From an uncultured Candidatus Saccharibacteria bacterium (GTDB lineage Bacteria; Patescibacteriota; Minisyncoccia; Phycocordibacterales; PCTT01), in the NCBI GenBank assembly GCA_964566505.1, contig CAZMIM010000002.1, positions 46,529-110,528 of the forward strand: 64,000 nt of DNA, read 5' to 3'. The translations under genes and the position numbers were made by a program. Each line of letters begins with the position of its first letter. Position 1 is the first letter of the stretch. This document shows positions 874 to 47,575 of the stretch, piece after piece. Below the pieces are notes generated by a model. It was not told the DNA's origin, did no database searches, and saw only the letters and a list, made by a program, of their open reading frames with translations.

Positions 874-2073
874 CTAGGCAACAACCTTTGTTACTACTCC
901 AGCCCCTACAGTCTTACCACCCTCTCGGATAGCAAACCGTTGCTTCTCTTCAAGCGCAACTGGTGCGATAAGTTTTACTTTGAAAGTAATAGTATCACCA
1001 GGCATAACCATCTCTGTTCCATCTGGAAGGGTTACGTCTCCTGTTACGTCTGTTGTTCGAATGTAGAACTGTGGCTTATATCCAGAGAAGAATGGTGTGT
1101 GTCGTCCTCCTTCTTCTTTAGAAAGAATATACACCTCTGCTTCAAACTCTGTGTGAGGATTTACTGAGCCAGTCTTTGCAAGAACCTGTCCTCGTGTAAC
1201 GTCCTCTTTCTTGAGACCTCGTAGAAGAATTCCTGCGTTGTCTCCTGCCATACCTTCTTGAAGTTGTTTGTTGAACATCTCCACTCCAGTAACAGTTGTT
1301 TTCATTGTGTCCTTGATTCCAACAATCTCAATCTCTTCTCCTACCTTTACGATTCCTCGCTCGATACGACCAGTTACTACTGTTCCTCGTCCTTCGATTG
1401 AGAATACGTCCTCGATAGGCATCAAGAATGGCTTATCAGTCTCTCGTTCTGGTGTTGGAATGTACTCGTCGATTGCCTTTGCAAGGTCAAGTACTTTCTG
1501 TGCCCACTCATCGTTGATGTCAGTTGCCTCAAGAGCCTTGAGTGCTGAACCTTTGATGATTGGTGCGTTCTCACCATCGAACTCGTACTTAGAAAGAAGT
1601 TCTCGAATCTCTTCTTCCACCAAGTCTACAAGCTCAGGGTCATCAACCATATCTACCTTGTTGATGAATACAATAATTTTTGGCACACCTACTTGTCGTG
1701 CAAGAAGGATGTGTTCTCGGGTTTGTGGCATCAAACCGTCTGTAGCAGCCACCACAAGTACGGCACCGTCCATCTGCGCGGCACCAGTAATCATGTTTTT
1801 AATGTAGTCTGCGTGACCTGGCGCATCAACGTGCGCGTAGTGTCGTGAAGGTGTTTGGTACTCTACGTGCGCAAGCGCAATAGTAATACCTCGAGCTTTC
1901 TCTTCAGGAGCGTTGTCGATTGCGTCAACACCCTTTCCTTGTGAAGAGTACCCGTCTCCAGCTATGTTAAGTACATTAAGAATAGCTGCAGTAAGTGTGG
2001 TCTTTCCATGGTCAACGTGGCCGATTGTACCTACGTTCACGTGTGGCTTTGACCGATCAAATGCATCTGCCAT
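874..2073 (-). CDS. tuf: Translation elongation factor Tu
   Basis: 399-aa ORF with GTPase motifs [14 protein letters not shown] and NKVD, and full-length EF-Tu similarity. Confidence 0.98.
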
Positions 2074-2222
2074 AACTAAACAATTAATTTAATAAAACTG
2101 CCACATAGCAACACGAGAGCGCGCGAGATGCCTCTCGCGTTGCTGTGTGTAATGTGTACCTCGCCTTCTATGAAGGTGTACGCCTAGATTAAAAAGACGC
2201 ACAATCTCGTGTACGTGTCCGT

Positions 2223-2250
2223 ATCATAACAAATATCTTAGGTGCGTCAA
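2223..2250 (-). promoter_or_regulatory. Candidate sigma70-type promoter for tuf
   Basis: Minus strand TTGACG-16 nt-TATGAT, about 150 nt upstream of the tuf ATG and just downstream of the terminator at 2265-2293. Confidence 0.45.
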
Positions 2251-2264
2251 CACTTTTTATGAAC

Positions 2265-2293
2265 AAAAACCGCCCTATAAAGAGGCGGTTTTT
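2265..2293. terminator. Bidirectional intrinsic terminator
   Basis: AAAAA-CCGCCCT-ATAAAG-AGGCGG-TTTTT. Confidence 0.6.
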
Positions 2294-2317
2294 GAAATCA
2301 AAGGATTTTTGAGTTCC

Positions 2318-3004
2318 TTATCGGTGTGAAATCTCTTTTCGAAGATTTTCAACATAGTCTGCAGCAGCTTTTTGACCACCAAGACCAAATGAAAGTCCGA
2401 ATGCAAGTGCAAGTGCAATTATCACTCCTGTGAATAGAGTTTGGATAAATGCAGCTGCAACACCAAGTTGGAATAGTGCAGCAAGAGCAGCAAATATCCA
2501 AATCGCCCATCGTGTGAGCGCTCCTAGGAAGTTTGCTGACCGCATGTGTGCGGCACGTGCTGAACCAACTACAACATTCTCCATTGCCTCAGCAATAACT
2601 GCGGCAACAAGCATGATAAGTACTGCAACGATTACCTTAGGAAGGAATAGAAGCACTACTTGTTGTAGGAATACATTGACTTGGCTGAGTCCAAGAACAT
2701 CCAATGAAGCAACGAGAAATACTACAATTACGAACCATTTTACGAGTGCTCCTAGGAATGCTCCAGAATCAAGCTTCATACCTGCTCGTGAAACTGCAGA
2801 TTCAAAACCTGCGCTTCGTAGTGCATTATCAAGCTTCAATGAGTGAATGATTTGAGCTACCGCTCGTCCAAGAACAGCACCAATTACCCATCCAAGGATG
2901 AAGATAATGATTGCTACTACTAGAGCTGGAATAAATTCAACTACTCCTACCCATAGATCTTGAAATGAACGTGTCAGAACGTCACTCCATGTATTAATAA
3001 GCAT
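2318..3004 (-). CDS. Polytopic membrane protein with repeated conserved-TM-helix pattern (MscS-associated type); function unknown
   Basis: 228-aa ORF with about five hydrophobic helices in a repeating pattern. No catalytic motif recognised. Confidence 0.45.
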   Translation of the reverse strand: MLINTWSDVLTRSFQDLWVGVVEFIPALVVAIIIFILGWVIGAVLGRAVAQIIHSLKLDNALRSAGFESAVSRAGMKLDSGAFLGALVKWFVIVVFLVASLDVLGLSQVNVFLQQVVLLFLPKVIVAVLIMLVAAVIAEAMENVVVGSARAAHMRSANFLGALTRWAIWIFAALAALFQLGVAAAFIQTLFTGVIIALALAFGLSFGLGGQKAAADYVENLRKEISHR

Positions 3005-3139
3005 AATATCTAGACATTATTAGTAATGATTTAAAATTACGACCTATTTTGACTATATCGTAATGATATGGGGATATAATAGCACTCTAGAGCAATCTCT
3101 ACACAACACAAAATGTGGATAATCATTAGTCTTGGACTG

Positions 3140-8820: not shown

Positions 8821-8878
8821 ATATTTATAATTAGTGCATTAATAATGTTCAACCATTATTATACGCCTCAAAAAATAC

Positions 8879-8909
8879 AAAAAGCAGAAGTTATTCACTT
8901 CTGCTTTTT
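8879..8909. terminator. Bidirectional intrinsic terminator
   Basis: AAAAA-GCAGAAG-TTATTCA-CTTCTGC-TTTTT. Confidence 0.6.
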
Positions 8910-8924
8910 GTGTTTATATATCGC

Positions 8925-9058
8925 TGGGCGACCACCGGGACGCTGCGCTATCTCACTCGCTCTAAAACGCTCTTTAAGAACCCACGGTTCTCAACGCTTC
9001 GCTGCTCTCCTCCACGGGAAAACTAGAGTTTTCCCGACCCCTTTCCTGTTCGATTCCC
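8925..9058 (-). repeat. tRNA-linked conserved element, copy A (downstream of tRNA-His)
   Basis: In the tRNA sense it starts GGGAATCGAAC (the reverse complement of the tRNA T-loop GTTCGATTCCC). It ends TCCCGGTGGTCGCCCA, identical to the last 16 nt of the tRNA-His gene region. The ~100-nt core is shared with 14746-14876 and 21635-21751. Confidence 0.8.
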
Positions 9059-9110
9059 TTAAATATTTACCCATAAAAGAAAGAGCGCAATAATGCGCTC
9101 TTTCTTTTCT

Positions 9111-9185
9111 TGGGCGACCACCGGGAATCGAACCCGAATTCCAGGTTCCACAAACCTGTGTAATAACCGTTATACCATGGTCGCC
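9111..9185 (-). tRNA. tRNA-His (anticodon GTG)
   Basis: Cloverleaf read by eye: extra 5' G(-1), anticodon arm CAGGT-TTGTGGA-ACCTG, T-arm CGGG-TTCGATT-CCCG. Own hairpin terminator at 9075-9108. Confidence 0.85.
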
Positions 9186-12428: not shown

Positions 12429-12516
12429 TGGTGCCCAGGACAGGAGTCGAACCTGCACATCCGTAATGGACATATCCCCCTCAAGGATACGCGTCTACCA
12501 GTTCCGCCACCTGGGC
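12429..12516 (-). tRNA. tRNA-Leu (anticodon GAG), class II with long variable arm, CCA encoded
   Basis: Acceptor GCCCAGG/CCTGGGC, anticodon arm TATCC-TTGAGGG-GGATA, 3' end ...GGGCACCA. Confidence 0.85.
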
Positions 12517-41650: not shown

Positions 41651-42748
41651 CTATTTGTTCATCGGCATTGCGATGTAGATAAAACTAGAATCCCCTACCC
41701 CTTGAACATAAATAGGTTTTCCAGGCCCTATTTTAAAAACCAAACTGTCTGTCGTTATTGATTGAAAACAATCAAAGACATTACGATAACTAAAACTAAC
41801 TGTCTGCGGGTCTCCTGAGAGCGCTGCAGAGACATTAATTGAGCTTTCTCCAAGCTCTTTATTGCTTGTTTTTATAATAAACTTTTTCTCTTTTGGTTTT
41901 ACCTCGAATGTAATTCTATTGAATTTGTCTGAGAAAATATTTGCCTGCTTCATAACATCAATAACATCTTGTTTTAGAACCACACACTCTGTTTCATACT
42001 CTTTTGGAATAATCTGCCTATAATCAGGAAATACTCCATCAACAACTCTTGATGTTACATACAAATCACCAATAGAAAATCCTATTTGATTTTGAGTAAT
42101 ACTTATCTCAACTTCACCTTTAATATCATCAAAAACCTTAATAACATCTGAAACATTTTTGAATGGAATCAAAATTGATTCAAAATCATCAAGTGATTTA
42201 AATGAAACACTCTTTTCTGCAAGTCTAAATGAATCTGTTGCAGCAAACACAACAGAACCTGACTCGTTATATATATAAACACTCGCAAGCTCTGGTTTCA
42301 TACTTTGCGGTGAAGCACTGTACCAAACAGATTTTAGACCATGAATAAATTTATCAATAGGAAGTTTTAGTGTTTTATCAGACACAACACGAGGAATAGA
42401 AGGAAATTCTTCATGAGGATATGTTTTTACTTTTGTTTGTGAATTATTTGTAGTTACAAGAAGAGTATTATCTTTTGTTTCGAGAGTAATTTTTGAATCT
42501 TGAGTTATGTTCCCAATAAAACTCTTGAGAAGCTCGGCAGGAACAGCTACTGTGCCCTCTTCTTCAACTTTTACAGGTATTTTTATCTCAACTCCCAGAT
42601 CAAGATTTGTTGCTCGAATAGTGAGAGTGTTATTTTTTGCTACAAGCAAAATATATTTCAATACAGGTAACGTAACATTTTTACTTGTTACCTTATCTGC
42701 TTTTGAAATTGCATTCTCTATTTTTTCTTTTAAACATTCTAACTTCAT
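41651..42748 (-). CDS. dnaN: DNA polymerase III beta sliding clamp
   Basis: 365-aa ORF immediately downstream of dnaA with a collinear DnaN pattern (PVLKYILLVAKNNTLTIRATNLDLG...). Confidence 0.9.
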   Translation of the reverse strand: MKLECLKEKIENAISKADKVTSKNVTLPVLKYILLVAKNNTLTIRATNLDLGVEIKIPVKVEEEGTVAVPAELLKSFIGNITQDSKITLETKDNTLLVTTNNSQTKVKTYPHEEFPSIPRVVSDKTLKLPIDKFIHGLKSVWYSASPQSMKPELASVYIYNESGSVVFAATDSFRLAEKSVSFKSLDDFESILIPFKNVSDVIKVFDDIKGEVEISITQNQIGFSIGDLYVTSRVVDGVFPDYRQIIPKEYETECVVLKQDVIDVMKQANIFSDKFNRITFEVKPKEKKFIIKTSNKELGESSINVSAALSGDPQTVSFSYRNVFDCFQSITTDSLVFKIGPGKPIYVQGVGDSSFIYIAMPMNK

Positions 42749-43012
42749 GGTTGTGTATTATTTTCTTTTTTAAATATATTATTACTATTATTAGGGCTGT
42801 TGATATGTGGGAAAGTTGTAAATATAAATCTATATAAGGATGTATTTGAAAATATTTTTTGTGAAAAACACTGCTTATATGAGGATTAATGGTGATAATT
42901 TGGTTAATAACTTTGACTGATTGATACTTATTAAATACTTTCAACATTTACTTTCTTTTTTATACCTAAGTTATTCATATTTGAAATCACCACCTATGCA
43001 CATATTTATCCC
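42749..43012. other. Very AT-rich dnaA-dnaN spacer, candidate part of oriC (DNA-unwinding region)
   Basis: 264 nt, strongly AT-rich by eye. Only weak DnaA-box-like sites are present (TGTGGGAAA at 42806-42814). Confidence 0.4.
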
Positions 43013-44359
43013 CTATAACATATTTCTTATCTGGTGGATTTCTTGAGATAACACACTGTCTGTCTCTAACTCTTTCTTTATCTTTTCATACGAGTGAATT
43101 ACTGTTGTATGGTCCCTACCCCCAAGTTTCTGGCCAATTGTTGGGTATGCGATGTTATAGTCTTCACGAAGTATATACATAATAATTTGCCGAGGTTTTA
43201 CCACTTCTTTCTTTCTAGTCTTTTTATAAACATTCTCCTCTTCTATATTGTAAAAATCAGTAATGATTCGAATAATATCCTCAATAGGAGCTGTTCTTTT
43301 TGATTTAATACTGTTTCGTACAAGATGTTTTACCTCATTTAAAGAAAGTTCTCTATCTTTTAGTTGTGATTGAACAACAACAACATTAAATACCCCCTCA
43401 AGTTCTCGGATGTTGCTCCCAATCATAGATGCAAGATAATCAAGAACCTCTGGGTTTAGAGTTATGTTGTGTTGTTTTGATTTTGCTTGAAGAATCGCAA
43501 CTCTAGATTCGTGGTCTGGTGGAGAAATATCAACTACCATACCTGCGCTAAATCGAGATTTAAGTCTATCTTCCATATTTTGAAGATAGTTTGGGTGCAT
43601 GTCAGACGAGAAAATAATCTGCTTGTTGTTGTCGTATAGAGTATTGAATAGATGAAACAGCTCTTCTTGGCTCTTCTCTTTCTTAGAAAGAAACTGAATA
43701 TCATCCATAATCAAAACATCGTATTTTCTATACTTTTCTTTAAAGAGGTTCATTTTATTTTGACGAATTGCATTTGTTACATCAACAACAAACTTCTCAG
43801 ATGTCATATAAAACACTTTTATATTCGAATATGACTTCTTTAGGTGGTTTCCTACAGACTGAATAAGGTGTGTTTTACCACAACCAGTGCGTCCATATAC
43901 AAAAAGAGGGTTATATACCACACCAGGACTCTTTATGATTGCCTGAGAGGCTGCATATGCAAGCTCATTGAATGGTCCAACAATAAAAGAATCAAAAGTA
44001 TATCGAGGGTTAAGGTTGTCTTCCCTGTTTATGTATACATCACTTAGTGGTAGAGCTCCTTTTGTGAGATCAAGGTCACTTGAGTGTTCTGCTATTTCTT
44101 TTGCTTCAGGTTTTTCTCTTGTTACAACGTACTCAACACTTCGCACATGCTCTACAAGTTCTCTAAGGGTTTTGAGAATAAACTTATGATATTTCTCAGA
44201 TAGCCATGTTTTTACAAATTCATTTGGTACTCCTATATATACAACTCCATCTTCTTCCTTTAAAATATATGTCTCGCTAAACCATGTGTTAAATGTTGCT
44301 TTTGTTACATTTAGTTCTGCTTCTACGAGTACGTTTTCCCAAAGTTGTTTTGTATCCAT
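43013..44359 (-). CDS. dnaA: Chromosomal replication initiator protein DnaA
   Basis: Walker A GRTGCGKTHL, Walker B LIMDDIQFL, sensor motifs, and a C-terminal DnaA-box-binding domain (IGQKLGGRDHTTVIHSYEKI). The start is placed at MDTKQLWENV. Confidence 0.92.
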   Translation of the reverse strand: MDTKQLWENVLVEAELNVTKATFNTWFSETYILKEEDGVVYIGVPNEFVKTWLSEKYHKFILKTLRELVEHVRSVEYVVTREKPEAKEIAEHSSDLDLTKGALPLSDVYINREDNLNPRYTFDSFIVGPFNELAYAASQAIIKSPGVVYNPLFVYGRTGCGKTHLIQSVGNHLKKSYSNIKVFYMTSEKFVVDVTNAIRQNKMNLFKEKYRKYDVLIMDDIQFLSKKEKSQEELFHLFNTLYDNNKQIIFSSDMHPNYLQNMEDRLKSRFSAGMVVDISPPDHESRVAILQAKSKQHNITLNPEVLDYLASMIGSNIRELEGVFNVVVVQSQLKDRELSLNEVKHLVRNSIKSKRTAPIEDIIRIITDFYNIEEENVYKKTRKKEVVKPRQIIMYILREDYNIAYPTIGQKLGGRDHTTVIHSYEKIKKELETDSVLSQEIHQIRNML

Positions 44360-44581
44360 GTCTAAAAAGTTAGTGTGTCTATTATATAATGATGGGGAAA
44401 ACGCTATAACTTGTGGAAAGTATGTAAATATGTTAATAATGTGTGGATACAATACCAGGATTAGTATATAAAAGTATGTCAACAACCCCATACCAGAGCA
44501 AAGCACGGTACAGGGCGAGAAATAGACAAAAACATACTCCTAGTATATAGTCTTAAGGTAAAAACTTGTAAATAATACGTT
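44360..44581. other. dnaA-rpmH intergenic region with DnaA-box-like sites (candidate oriC / dnaA autoregulation)
   Basis: TGTGGATAC at 44443-44451 is the reverse complement of GTATCCACA, 8/9 to TTATCCACA. TGTGGAAAG at 44412-44420 is 7/9. Confidence 0.45.
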
Positions 44582-46362: not shown

Positions 46363-47575
46363 AGAGCTCTATTCCCCACGCACTTAAGTCTCTTTTGTTT
46401 ATGAAGTAAAGATAATTTTCATCTTCATTGATAATAAGATTTGTTCCATCTATAAATTGAGAAACATCTTCTTGTGGGGTCATGATTTTGTCTGTAGCAA
46501 AACTGTTTATATCAACTTTCCAAAATACGTCATTAAAGAAAAACTCTCCTTTGTACCAATCATCAGGATAGAGTGCTTGTTGTATAAACTCAGGGACAGC
46601 ACAGTATAGTGATTCTTCTTCGAACCACGTACATTTCTCAGGAAGTGTTGTTATTGGAAGCTCCTGTGAGGTGTCTTCTGAGACATTGTACAGATATGTA
46701 TCGAAGCCACCAAAGATGTTTGTTCGTGCATACAAAACAAAAGAGCCTTCTGGTGATACGAGTGTTGTAAGGCCATCTGCAGACAGGATTTTATTAAATG
46801 AGCGGGATGAAACAGAGAAAAAATATAGTGAACCGTGTGTGTTTGCGGTTGGCGCGCTTGTGAATGCTATTTGGTTTGGGCTAAACCACTGCAGGTTCCA
46901 GTTTTTGTAAGAAGAGTTAAAGATATTTCGAGTGTTTCCGGTTGTTTGTGTGTAGTCTATACCAACAACATCCAAAACACGATCTATTAAGTAGAAATAT
47001 TTATTCCCTGCTGGTGATACAGCCACAGAAGAAATGTTGTTTGGTAAAAATTCTGTTTCAACACCGTTCTCATTAAGCACTCCCCACACACTCTCGATAC
47101 TTTCATAATCTGTATTTATATATTGATACAACACAGAGCCATTTTCACCTACAAGCGCTCTTTGAGAGCTTGGTACGGTTGTGTTCGAAACACGTTCTGT
47201 TTGTTTTGAGCTTGTGTCGTGCTCATATATATGACCGGTTGCCCTATTTACTATATATACACCATTTTCAGAAAGTCCAATTCCAGATGATGGTTGGTTG
47301 TGGGCTTTAAATACATTTTTAGCACTTCCACCGCTTACCCCAACAGAAGAAACAGCGCCTGAGTTTGTGCTCTCAAAAGGATCTTGTGTGGACTGGCCAC
47401 CTCCTCTATCGGTGTTCTCAGTTGGTTCTCCAAAAGGAAACAAGTCTACAGAGTCGTCTTGTCCCATTAAATCAATATTGTTATTTCCACCAATTCCACG
47501 AATTACAAAGAACCCCACAAGAGCAAGGATGAGAATGACAAGTATTAGAATTATAAAAAATCGCTTTTGGAACAT
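46361..47575 (-). CDS. Membrane-anchored protein, beta-propeller-like (last gene of the T4SS-like operon)
   Basis: N-terminal TM (FFIILILVILILALVGFFVI). It has repetitive beta-strand-rich composition reminiscent of TolB/PD40-type propellers. Its ATG lies 1 nt after the upstream stop. Confidence 0.45.
   Translation of the reverse strand: MFQKRFFIILILVILILALVGFFVIRGIGGNNNIDLMGQDDSVDLFPFGEPTENTDRGGGQSTQDPFESTNSGAVSSVGVSGGSAKNVFKAHNQPSSGIGLSENGVYIVNRATGHIYEHDTSSKQTERVSNTTVPSSQRALVGENGSVLYQYINTDYESIESVWGVLNENGVETEFLPNNISSVAVSPAGNKYFYLIDRVLDVVGIDYTQTTGNTRNIFNSSYKNWNLQWFSPNQIAFTSAPTANTHGSLYFFSVSSRSFNKILSADGLTTLVSPEGSFVLYARTNIFGGFDTYLYNVSEDTSQELPITTLPEKCTWFEEESLYCAVPEFIQQALYPDDWYKGEFFFNDVFWKVDINSFATDKIMTPQEDVSQFIDGTNLIINEDENYLYFINKRDLSAWGIEL

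Follow-up and report, generated by a model that had tools for sequence, protein, structure and literature searches.

The DNA analyzed here is a 64,000-nt chromosomal segment (the window; positions 46,529 to 110,528 of contig CAZMIM010000002.1, assembly GCA_964566505.1) of a Patescibacteria (candidate phyla radiation, Saccharibacteria-like) genome, which encodes EF-Tu, L19, Ddl, Mur ligases, Pol I, RuvB, dnaN, dnaA, type IV pilus proteins, and VirB4-like proteins together with seven tRNA genes (ARAGORN). Three of these genes, for tRNA-His, tRNA-Arg(TCT), and tRNA-Ser(TGA), are followed on the same strand by a noncoding element, designated copies A, B, and C, respectively, that is the subject of this study (Table 1). 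Each copy begins with the exact reverse complement of about positions 53-63/65 of the tRNA, continues with a conserved core, and closes with 16 nt identical to the tRNA gene from position 60 through N73 and the CA after it. An earlier interpretation made from the letters alone (the sequence-only reading) had described this layout, and every feature that it listed was found in the sequence. It should be noted that the terminal CA of the 16-nt copy is not specific to the element, because six of the seven tRNA genes (9112-29365) end in N73-C-A, the full CCA being encoded only by tRNA-Leu(GAG), at 12429-12516. The spacers between tRNA and element are 52, 52, and 51 nt in A, B, and C; each contains a terminator-like hairpin, and their sequences are unrelated. 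The core pattern occurs three times in the window as compared with 0.00 expected, and a second copy of the last 13 nt is found for only these three of the seven tRNAs. A covariance model scores copies B, A, and C at 95.7, 88, and 67 bits, respectively, the next independent match in the window, outside the three loci, being 12 bits.

The anatomy is best described by dividing the target, X, into L (tRNA positions 53-59) and O (position 60 to the end of the gene). Read in the tRNA sense, the order at a locus is gene...L-O - s - rc(O)rc(L) - core - L* - O' - d, in which s is the spacer, rc denotes a reverse complement, L* is a copy of L with fixed mismatches, and O' is the distal copy of O. One subfamily has GTGAGAT as L*, whereas other subfamilies have the true GTTCGAT or a close variant of it; the direct copy truly begins at position 53, with the fixed mismatches GTTCGAT to GTGAGAT. 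An optional 9-nt mini-hairpin (GCGAAGC type; AGCGAAGCG) is inserted between positions 59 and 60, often before or after L*. The inverted arm, unlike L*, is perfectly complementary to the real L, and pairing of rc(X) with L*O gives an imperfect hairpin with its mismatches at the exchange point, a tandem G.A at tRNA sites and one to four mismatches at protein-gene sites. The bounded segment is about 190 nt and contains no open reading frame (ORF). The arm complementary to the T-loop and T-stem is thus present as the sequence-only reading had stated, but its shortness in the window (11-14 nt) reflects decay of a full 20-22-nt copy of positions 53-73, since inverted copies of these positions are intact at 19-22 nt in other genomes (loci L031, L028, L024, L002, L020, and L070). 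The spacer of copy A probably retains a remnant of the outer part of this arm, TGGGTAAATATT, which would have arisen from the expected TGGGCGACCACC almost entirely by transitions. With a decayed outer inverted arm and an intact core and O', the window copies appear to be old.

Table 1. Positions of the three element copies and their associated features in the window
Feature	Position	Strand	Basis
tRNA-His(GTG), target of copy A	9112-9184	-	ARAGORN; Rfam tRNA, 59 bits
Last ~16 nt of tRNA-His (O); with the trailer, putative element-supplied replacement 3' end	9127-9112	-	
Spacer s of copy A, containing a terminator-like hairpin (15-bp stem, 9108-9094 / 9089-9075; loop TTAT)	9059-9110	-	Sequence; terminator-like alignment
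Copy A, whole element	9058->8925	-	Sequence
Copy A, inverted arm rc(L), GGGAATCGAAC, exact reverse complement of tRNA-His positions 53-63	9048-9058	-	Sequence
Copy A, conserved core	8970-9051	-	Covariance model R1, 88 bits; pattern; covariation; mirror covariation
Copy A, purine strand J1/a	9046-9038	-	
Copy A, hairpin P-a	9036-9015	-	
Copy A, junction GTGGAGGAGAG		-	
Copy A, GCGAAGC mini-hairpin P-b	9002-8996	-	
Copy A, hairpin P-c	8994-8974	-	
Copy A, L*, GTGAGAT, mismatched copy of T-loop GTTCGAT	8956-8950	-	Sequence
Copy A, mini-hairpin AGCGCAGCG	8949-8941	-	Sequence
Copy A, O', TCCCGGTGGTCGCCCA, exact 16-nt direct copy of tRNA-His 3' end (position 60 to N73 plus CA)	8925-8940	-	Sequence
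Intrinsic terminator after copy A	8877-8911	-	
tRNA-Arg(TCT), target of copy B	14930-15002	-	ARAGORN; Rfam
52-nt spacer with hairpin, preceding copy B	14928-14877	-	
Copy B, whole element	14877->14746	-	Pattern; covariance model, 95.7 bits; repeat search
Copy B, inverted arm GCCAGGAATCGAAC	14877-14864	-	
Copy B, core	14867-14777	-	
Copy B, L*, GTGAGAT	14777-14771	-	
Copy B, mini-hairpin AGCGAAGCG	14770-14762	-	
Copy B, O', TCCTGGCGGGGGCGCA	14761-14746	-	
tRNA-Ser(TGA), target of copy C	21496-21581	+	ARAGORN; Rfam
Spacer s of copy C, with terminator-like hairpin (21587-21623)	21583-21633	+	Sequence
Copy C, whole element	21634-21751	+	Pattern; covariance model, 67.4 bits; repeat search
Copy C, inverted arm TGGGATTCGAAC	21634-21645	+	
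Copy C, core	21642-21719	+	
Copy C, unique variant pair, J GGAAGAGGGG / P-a GGGAGAAAC-GTTTCTCCC	Within core	+	
Copy C, mini-hairpin CGAAGCG		+	
Copy C, L*, GTGAGAT	21729-21735	+	
Copy C, O', TCCCACCCTCTCCGCA	21736-21751	+	

At least 161 copies of the same core were collected from Patescibacteria genomes and metagenomes. A scan of one genome per species with the exact motif gave 42 loci, almost all in Patescibacteria (Saccharibacteria, Paceibacterota, Kaiser-, Wolfe-, Berkel-, and Nomurabacteria), a relaxed motif gave at least 120 loci in metagenomes, and 2.9 million viral contigs scanned with the core pattern gave zero matches. A same-strand tRNA ends less than 200 nt upstream of 82 of the 161 copies, always in the tRNA sense and with 17 amino-acid identities represented; the linkage to tRNAs and their 3' ends that had been anticipated from the window applies to these copies, and other copies are located at the ends of protein genes or stand alone. 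Measured back from the tRNA end, the direct repeat begins at 14-18 nt in 51 of 59 copies and the left inverted arm at 22-25 nt (position 53) in 48 of 63. The direct repeat is exactly 16 nt in the window, 10-31 nt at tRNA-linked copies, and 8-79 nt over all sites. A search of Rfam 15 with the element and one stand-alone copy returned only tRNAs and chance matches, with no family at the gathering threshold or at E <= 10, in agreement with the earlier statement that no known RNA class could be recognized. No published description of the element was found in the literature; the only related work found deals with Patescibacteria tRNAs that have group I introns in their anticodon loops, which are a different thing (PMC13011429).

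The stand-alone form ("class 2") consists of a conserved 5' hairpin (CCGCAGAATTCCCC...GGGGATGAATGCGG), the core, and a terminator-like 3' hairpin whose apical part repeats the apical part of the 5' hairpin. It is found at L005, L017, L022, L029, L033, L040, L045, L103, L126, L150, and other loci, with several copies per genome and four in bin-301; the neighbors of 10 stand-alone copies are housekeeping genes in unrelated intergenic contexts, with no shared protein. At two metagenome loci (L069 and L075), the core is directly upstream of the 5' end of a tRNA, behind near-consensus σ70-type promoters (TTGACT-17-TAGGAT; extended -10 TGTATAAT), and would be transcribed there as a tRNA leader. At another locus (L041, 1-181, minus strand), the core is broken immediately behind GTGGAGG, where an ORF resembling that of an insertion sequence (IS), with an HTH_23/HTH_29 domain, abuts it by its 3' end and the contig stops. 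The same locus has a further copy, diverged (37 bits), downstream of tRNA-Arg(CCG) at 1510-1596.

The core contains two hairpins, P-a and P-c. In 31 hand-picked copies, 92.8% of the cells in these hairpins are paired as compared with 62-64% when the partners are slid by one column; in 109 model-aligned copies, for which the alignment leans towards the covariance model, the paired fraction is 96.6% of cells, both members vary in 13 of 18 pairs, and none of 500 shuffles attains the observed values, so that the compensatory changes previously described for both hairpins in the window hold for the larger family. The assignment of strand from a G.T wobble was weak when based on copy A, but over the 109 copies G.T/T.G pairs exceed A.C/C.A pairs by 41 to 15, favoring the tRNA-sense strand. 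P-b is optional and takes large insertions, and the junction strands are purine-rich and nearly invariant. The stems of P-a and P-c are both homopurine/homopyrimidine, and the purine strand J1/a, 5' of P-a, mirrors the 5' strand of P-a rather than complementing it. The lengths of the G-runs in J1/a and P-a are concordant in 86 + 37 copies and discordant in 21 + 2 (Fisher p = 3e-17, uncorrected for phylogeny), and unique mirror variants agree, including that of window copy C, GGAAGAGGGG with GGGAGAAAC/GTTTCTCCC. This mirror covariation suggests that J1/a and P-a may form an intramolecular purine-motif (R.R-Y) triple helix. Purine-motif triplexes form in vitro with DNA strands and exclude RNA. 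The fold z-scores of copy A relative to shuffled sequences are -2.26 as DNA and -0.30 as RNA, the RNA being no more stable than shuffles. Together, the predicted triplex, the GCGAAGC mini-hairpins, the presence of C(GNR)G triloops, and the difference between the z-scores hint that the folded form of the core may be single-stranded DNA.

The same architecture is present at the ends, 5' or 3', of conserved protein genes, and the family is therefore not specific for tRNAs. Sites of this type include the 5' ends of murD (L007 and L010), of a translational GTPase gene (IRNIAIIAHVDHGKT; L061, L099, L130, and L157), and of rplK, dnaB, and rnhA, the 3' ends of rpsL, smpB, and a small ribosomal protein gene, and an HMA-domain gene (L035). 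Here the two copies of the repeat have the same sequence over 8-60 nt, beyond which they abruptly become gene ends that are homologous but different; the two murD ends of L007, for example, encode MNYRQYFKNKKVTVMG and MQDWRIYFKNKKITVMG. The copy joined to the gene body is flanked by cassette sequence, whereas the severed copy is in its native context, directly after the stop codon or terminator of the upstream gene. Since the two repeat copies are different gene ends and the remnant is in the native context, the cassette carries a foreign replacement end. At tRNA and rpsL sites the replacement is a 3' end that bears a terminator, and at murD, GTPase, and rnhA sites it is a 5' end with promoter and start codon. 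At protein-gene sites L* is mismatched beside the junction and rc(X) matches the true target; in L130 the mismatch in L* (CAC to CAG) would destroy the invariant His of the G1 motif.

Further observations bear on movement of the element as DNA. Locus L080 contains two perfect tandem 184-nt units, [O-s-rc(X)-core-L*], and a third, diverged unit, and in L001, L062, and L123 the repeats are 55-79 nt long and include s. The sites syntenic with tRNA-Arg(TCT) and tRNA-Ser(TGA) of the window are empty in related genomes, the comparison with relatives that the sequence-only reading had proposed, and the tRNA-His site is filled in seven lineages and empty in one; in look-ups of exact proteins for near-identical strains, the contigs were either absent or broken at the element. 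Clustered changes in the stem (TGG to CCA and TGC to GGT) distinguish the distal copy from the tRNA in L002 and L026, and these copies look like another allele rather than products of decay. The tandem units, filled and empty sites, and allele-like remnants appear to show mobility at the level of DNA. A search for long-range versions with cargo between the arms yielded nothing beyond the tandem array, the inverted duplication of L101, and the GIY-YIG ORF nested in L102.

Some details of these loci should be recorded. The L080 array occupies 1080-1650, after tRNA-Gly(TCC), and the P-a loop of its third unit carries an insertion. The inverted arm is an exact match to the unusual local T-loop, GTCCGAC, whereas L* reads GTTTGAT. 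In L101 (oriented 980-3060), tRNA-Ile plus element is present twice, inverted and 1.9 kb apart, either a real large palindrome or an assembly artefact. In L102 a 95-residue GIY-YIG (UPF0213-like) ORF (minus strand, about 860-1290 oriented) lies between tRNA and element; the ORF in turn has at its flanks a 19-nt direct repeat of the tRNA 3' end whose start in the T-loop is at the same position, and this insertion may represent a second kind of cassette at the same site. In L013 and L062, GIY-YIG homologues lie immediately downstream of the element.

The cassette is bounded by a duplicated gene end, supplies a replacement end, and occurs at many targets and in tandem. The interpretation that we put forward, and to which we would give about an even chance, is that each copy is an integrated, nonautonomous, noncoding mobile cassette of about 190 nt that has spread by recombination through the duplicated gene end. 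We rate the element as lying outside the known kinds, the element failing at least one defining test of each family considered, and our confidence in the mechanism as moderate. The proposal of the sequence-only reading that the element is a miniature integrase-less integrative element at tRNA 3' ends gains from the direct repeats, the restored gene end, the filled and empty sites, the tandem 184-nt units, and the many tRNAs involved, but its restriction to tRNAs was too narrow in view of the protein-gene sites and the stand-alone form.

In the proposed mechanism, the cassette would bring a replacement gene end, O-s, that carries a terminator of its own or, at the start of a gene, a promoter and start codon of its own, as observed at the protein-gene sites and by extension in the window. 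It would also bring an rc(X) complementary to the true target, the structured core, and the mismatched L*, with O'-d representing the severed original gene end. The tRNA-His, tRNA-Arg, and tRNA-Ser genes of the window would then use 3' ends and terminators supplied by the cassette, their original 3' ends surviving as the 16-nt tails. For copy A, the last 16 or so nucleotides of the tRNA and its trailer would be the replacement, O' the resident end, and the intrinsic terminator beyond it the original terminator of tRNA-His. Spread between genomes would use the conserved gene as one homology arm and the short duplicated O' as the other, by a double crossover after DNA uptake, for which host competence pili are present, or by Campbell-type integration of the 184-nt unit. 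The recombination model would explain the targeting of the ends of highly conserved genes, the sharp and variable repeat borders (8-79 nt), the combination of a foreign s with a native d, and the allele-like remnants. The least certain steps are that single-stranded rc(X) might pair with L*O to give a hairpin that mimics the target duplex, with mismatches beside the exchange point, and that the core, possibly including a purine-motif triple helix, might be the part recognized by a trans-acting host or helper factor. If one strand were exchanged between the target and a circular single-stranded form, [O-s-rc(X)-core-L*], the observed order would be reproduced exactly.

Several considerations weigh against this interpretation. 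At 8-25 nt in most copies, O' is very short for RecA-type recombination, and recombination between orthologous sites accounts neither for the acquisition by all three arms of specificity for a new target nor for the match of rc(X) to the true target when L* is always mismatched. The near-invariance of the core in old copies with a decayed outer arm points to host selection on the core, and hence to a cellular or RNA function, and promoters and terminators in the sense orientation at some copies make an RNA product likely. No excised form, same-population empty allele, or helper enzyme was found, the case for mobility being one of comparative anatomy only. It should also be recognized that sampling required a near-exact core motif, so that decayed cores are hidden, and that the proposed triplex and single-stranded DNA form rest on covariation uncorrected for phylogeny. 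For a second putative triplex (Ja/b with P-c) the association between partners is significant, but mirror and direct matches score equally, making it inseparable from low sequence complexity.

If selection on the core is given more weight, the element could be a structured noncoding RNA (ncRNA) gene acting on or with the neighboring tRNA, its mobility being secondary, an explanation that we consider unlikely. The 5' arm of such an RNA is antisense to the T-arm and the 3' strand of the acceptor stem and its 3' arm is the 3' end of the tRNA, the two forming a mimic of the acceptor/T-stem minihelix that could be a substrate of RNase P, RNase Z, or the CCA-adding enzyme or could serve as a decoy or antisense RNA. 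The covarying hairpins, the wobble bias on the sense strand, the stand-alone copies with their 5' hairpin and terminator-like 3' hairpin, the σ70-like promoters at L069 and L075, and the conservation of core and O' in the old window copies all agree with this possibility, as does the tolerance of P-b and P-c for large insertions between invariant junction strands, a pattern typical of functional RNAs. However, the same core is found at the ends of protein genes, where the arms are unrelated to tRNA; the minihelix is only 4-6 bp in the window copies; a scan for consensus promoters around copies A-C gave nothing convincing upstream on the sense strand; the fold of copy A as RNA is no more stable than shuffles; there is no matching Rfam family; and allele-like remnants and foreign replacement ends are signatures of DNA recombination. 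The earlier suggestion of an ncRNA with a tRNA-matched tail is compatible with the covarying hairpins and with the good promoters and terminators that some copies have in the tRNA sense, but the tail is best explained as the remnant of the resident target and not as a functional 3' end. A more active role for the core appears distinctly improbable to us and is retained because the perfect match of rc(X) and the systematic mismatches of L* look like a guide and a device at the exchange point. Here the core of ~85 nt, built on one or two intramolecular purine-motif triple helices, would be a programmable guide or catalytic module, as RNA or folded single-stranded DNA, directing its own insertion with two target-derived arms, wherever a sequence matches them, and using ubiquitous host functions or its own chemistry. 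It might be a bispecific guide like a bridge RNA, with its 5' arm pairing with the top strand of the target and its 3' arm being the donor strand, for a recombinase encoded elsewhere, or a self-inserting ribozyme or deoxyribozyme with 5' guide, catalytic core, and "3' exon," comparable to an engineered trans-splicing group I ribozyme; the arms alone would program insertion. At both tRNA and protein-gene sites rc(X) is perfect across the exchange point and L* has one to four adjacent mismatches; one core serves 17 or more tRNA types and 8 or more protein genes, its junction nucleotides are invariant with a possible triple helix, and there is no recombinase within or beside the cassette. Against such a role, no partner protein co-occurs in the 8-kb neighborhoods, no likeness to group I introns, HEARO, or any known ribozyme is found in Rfam at E <= 10, and about 85 nt is small for a splicing-type catalyst. 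The intact target beside the cassette would also cause a guide to re-target its own locus, which the L080 array might reflect, and all of the proposal derives from sequence.

Campbell integration at tRNA genes leaves a direct repeat of the tRNA 3' end and a restored tRNA, and these hallmarks of integrase-bearing elements raise the question of whether the copies are attL/attR scars or arm remnants of classical prophages or genomic islands. This is very improbable: the repeats are only about 190 nt apart in >100 loci, the identical core is present at different tRNAs and protein genes whereas the att arms of integrases are site-specific, tandem 184-nt units occur, and neither a match in the viral contigs nor an integrase among the scanned ORFs of the window was found. 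We give hardly any credence to an intron in the T-loop or a split tRNA, to a miniature element of the IS200/IS605 type in which a TnpB/IscB guide-RNA scaffold is followed by a 16-nt guide, or to an IS110 bridge RNA, even though a conserved ~100-nt scaffold precedes exactly 16 nt that match nearby sequence, the arms match both target strands, and the arrangement of 5' guide and "3' exon" recalls group I introns. The tRNA is intact with its own terminator, leaving nothing to splice, and Rfam models of group I, HEARO, and related RNAs are without matches at E <= 10; insertion of IS200/IS605 or IS110 elements generates no target duplication of 8-79 nt, and the left ends of these elements are conserved, in contrast to the unrelated s of different copies; a guide of the TnpB type would find a target in the restored tRNA beside it; and no tnpB, iscB, or DEDD gene is present near the copies examined.

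Simpler identities were also rejected. With the tRNAs intact and the frame broken by indels, the earlier view that the element is noncoding and not an intron is correct, and a small ORF is excluded on the same ground; two spurious ORFs antisense through copies A and B (8845-9093, plus strand, 82 residues, and 14646-14891, plus strand, 81 residues) are unconserved, with their frames broken by indels. A transfer-messenger RNA (tmRNA) or tRNA-like RNA was discarded because ARAGORN gives only the seven tRNAs and the tmRNA models only a chance 11-bit match inside a tRNA. A group I intron in tRNA was set aside given the intact window tRNAs, the lack of an RF00028 match at E <= 10, and the location of the described Patescibacteria tRNA introns in the anticodon loop (PMC13011429).

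With regard to the remainder of the window, a Pfam scan covered 39 of the 64 ORFs of at least 90 residues, including every ORF that flanks copies A-C, and gave no recombinase, transposase, or reverse transcriptase; intI was not found in the window. The earlier statement that no recombinase lies beside any copy therefore holds under Pfam, with the qualification that an ORF of 151 residues with an HNH endonuclease domain (21013-21468, plus strand; Pfam E = 6.7e-5) stops 28 nt upstream of the gene targeted by copy C, tRNA-Ser(TGA). This HNH ORF has one weak homologue among 163 related loci; for GIY-YIG nucleases there are five weak homologues in the same 163, and only three of these HNH and GIY-YIG homologues are adjacent to the element. 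The adjacent dnaN and dnaA genes (41651-44506, minus strand) indicate that a replication origin is probably near, and the cumulative GC skew across the window is without a clear turning point.

If the recombination-driven cassette is confirmed, it would represent a new kind of mobile DNA, about 190 nt long and without a protein gene, that is distributed across the Patescibacteria radiation and occupies dozens of conserved gene ends without damage. It would explain partial tRNA 3' ends and duplicated gene starts in minimal genomes and indicate that selfish DNA is active even in genomes of 1 Mb. Its design is that of a natural knock-in cassette, in which a compact structured core is combined with a target-matched homology or guide arm and a replacement gene end. 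Should insertion be programmed by the arms alone, it would be a very small targeting module, and if the core is itself a guide or catalyst, the cassette would be a nucleic acid-guided mobile element free of protein genes and the smallest known programmable system for DNA insertion. Saccharibacteria are naturally transformable, and the cassette is a possible tool for them. A natural purine-motif triple helix, if real, would be of independent structural interest.

Comparisons with known systems reveal partial resemblances. The cassette shares with the internal guide sequence of group I introns, and with engineered trans-splicing ribozymes, a 5' segment antisense to the junction (R'L'), a structured core, and a "3' exon" equivalent to the downstream part of the target, but its core is too small and unrelated (no RF00028 match), the gene is uninterrupted at the RNA level, and its foreign gene ends and tandem units are features of DNA. 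Elements of the IS200/IS605 type and TnpB-IscB guide RNAs are expected to have subterminal hairpins at both ends and no duplication, whereas the left part of the cassette is unrelated between copies and a duplication is present. Like the miniature transposable elements with inverted repeats (MITEs), Correia elements, REP/BIME, and PATEs, the cassette is small, noncoding, multicopy (at least three per 64 kb here), nonautonomous, and hairpin-forming; it differs from these repeats in that its terminal inverted repeats are copied from the local target and differ in each copy, there is no target-site duplication of fixed length, and the interrupted gene is restored. The bridge (seek) RNAs of IS110/IS1111 are also structured noncoding modules of ~100-200 nt with short, reprogrammable segments that match both target strands and the donor, but in the cassette there is no adjacent gene for a DEDD recombinase, the guides are terminal arms of 11-22 nt rather than internal loops, 8-79 nt are duplicated in place of a 2-nt core, and sequence or Rfam similarity is absent. 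In the attP(+) site of CTXφ (XerCD) and the attC sites of integrons, an imperfect two-arm hairpin imitates a duplex site and has mismatches or extrahelical bases beside the exchange point, as in the cassette; these sites imitate one fixed partner (dif or attI) and are cut by a known tyrosine recombinase, whereas the hairpin of the cassette copies whichever gene end is targeted and would act through a putative single-stranded intermediate. We know of no autonomous partner of the cassette. Besides these folded att sites, the closest parallels are found among elements that integrate at the ends of tRNA and other genes, namely temperate phages, integrative and conjugative elements (ICEs), genomic islands, and integrase-less cis-mobilizable elements (CIMEs), which insert at the 3' ends of tRNA genes or at the ends of protein genes, supply a replacement end, generate a direct repeat with the severed end on the far side, and form tandem accretions. 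The cassette has the direct repeat of the gene end and the restored gene, and its bounded segment has no recombinase gene; it differs from these elements in its size of about 190 nt, in having neither cargo nor integrase, and in its use of a single core for dozens of targets, an additional inverted copy of the target, and a direct repeat of variable length.

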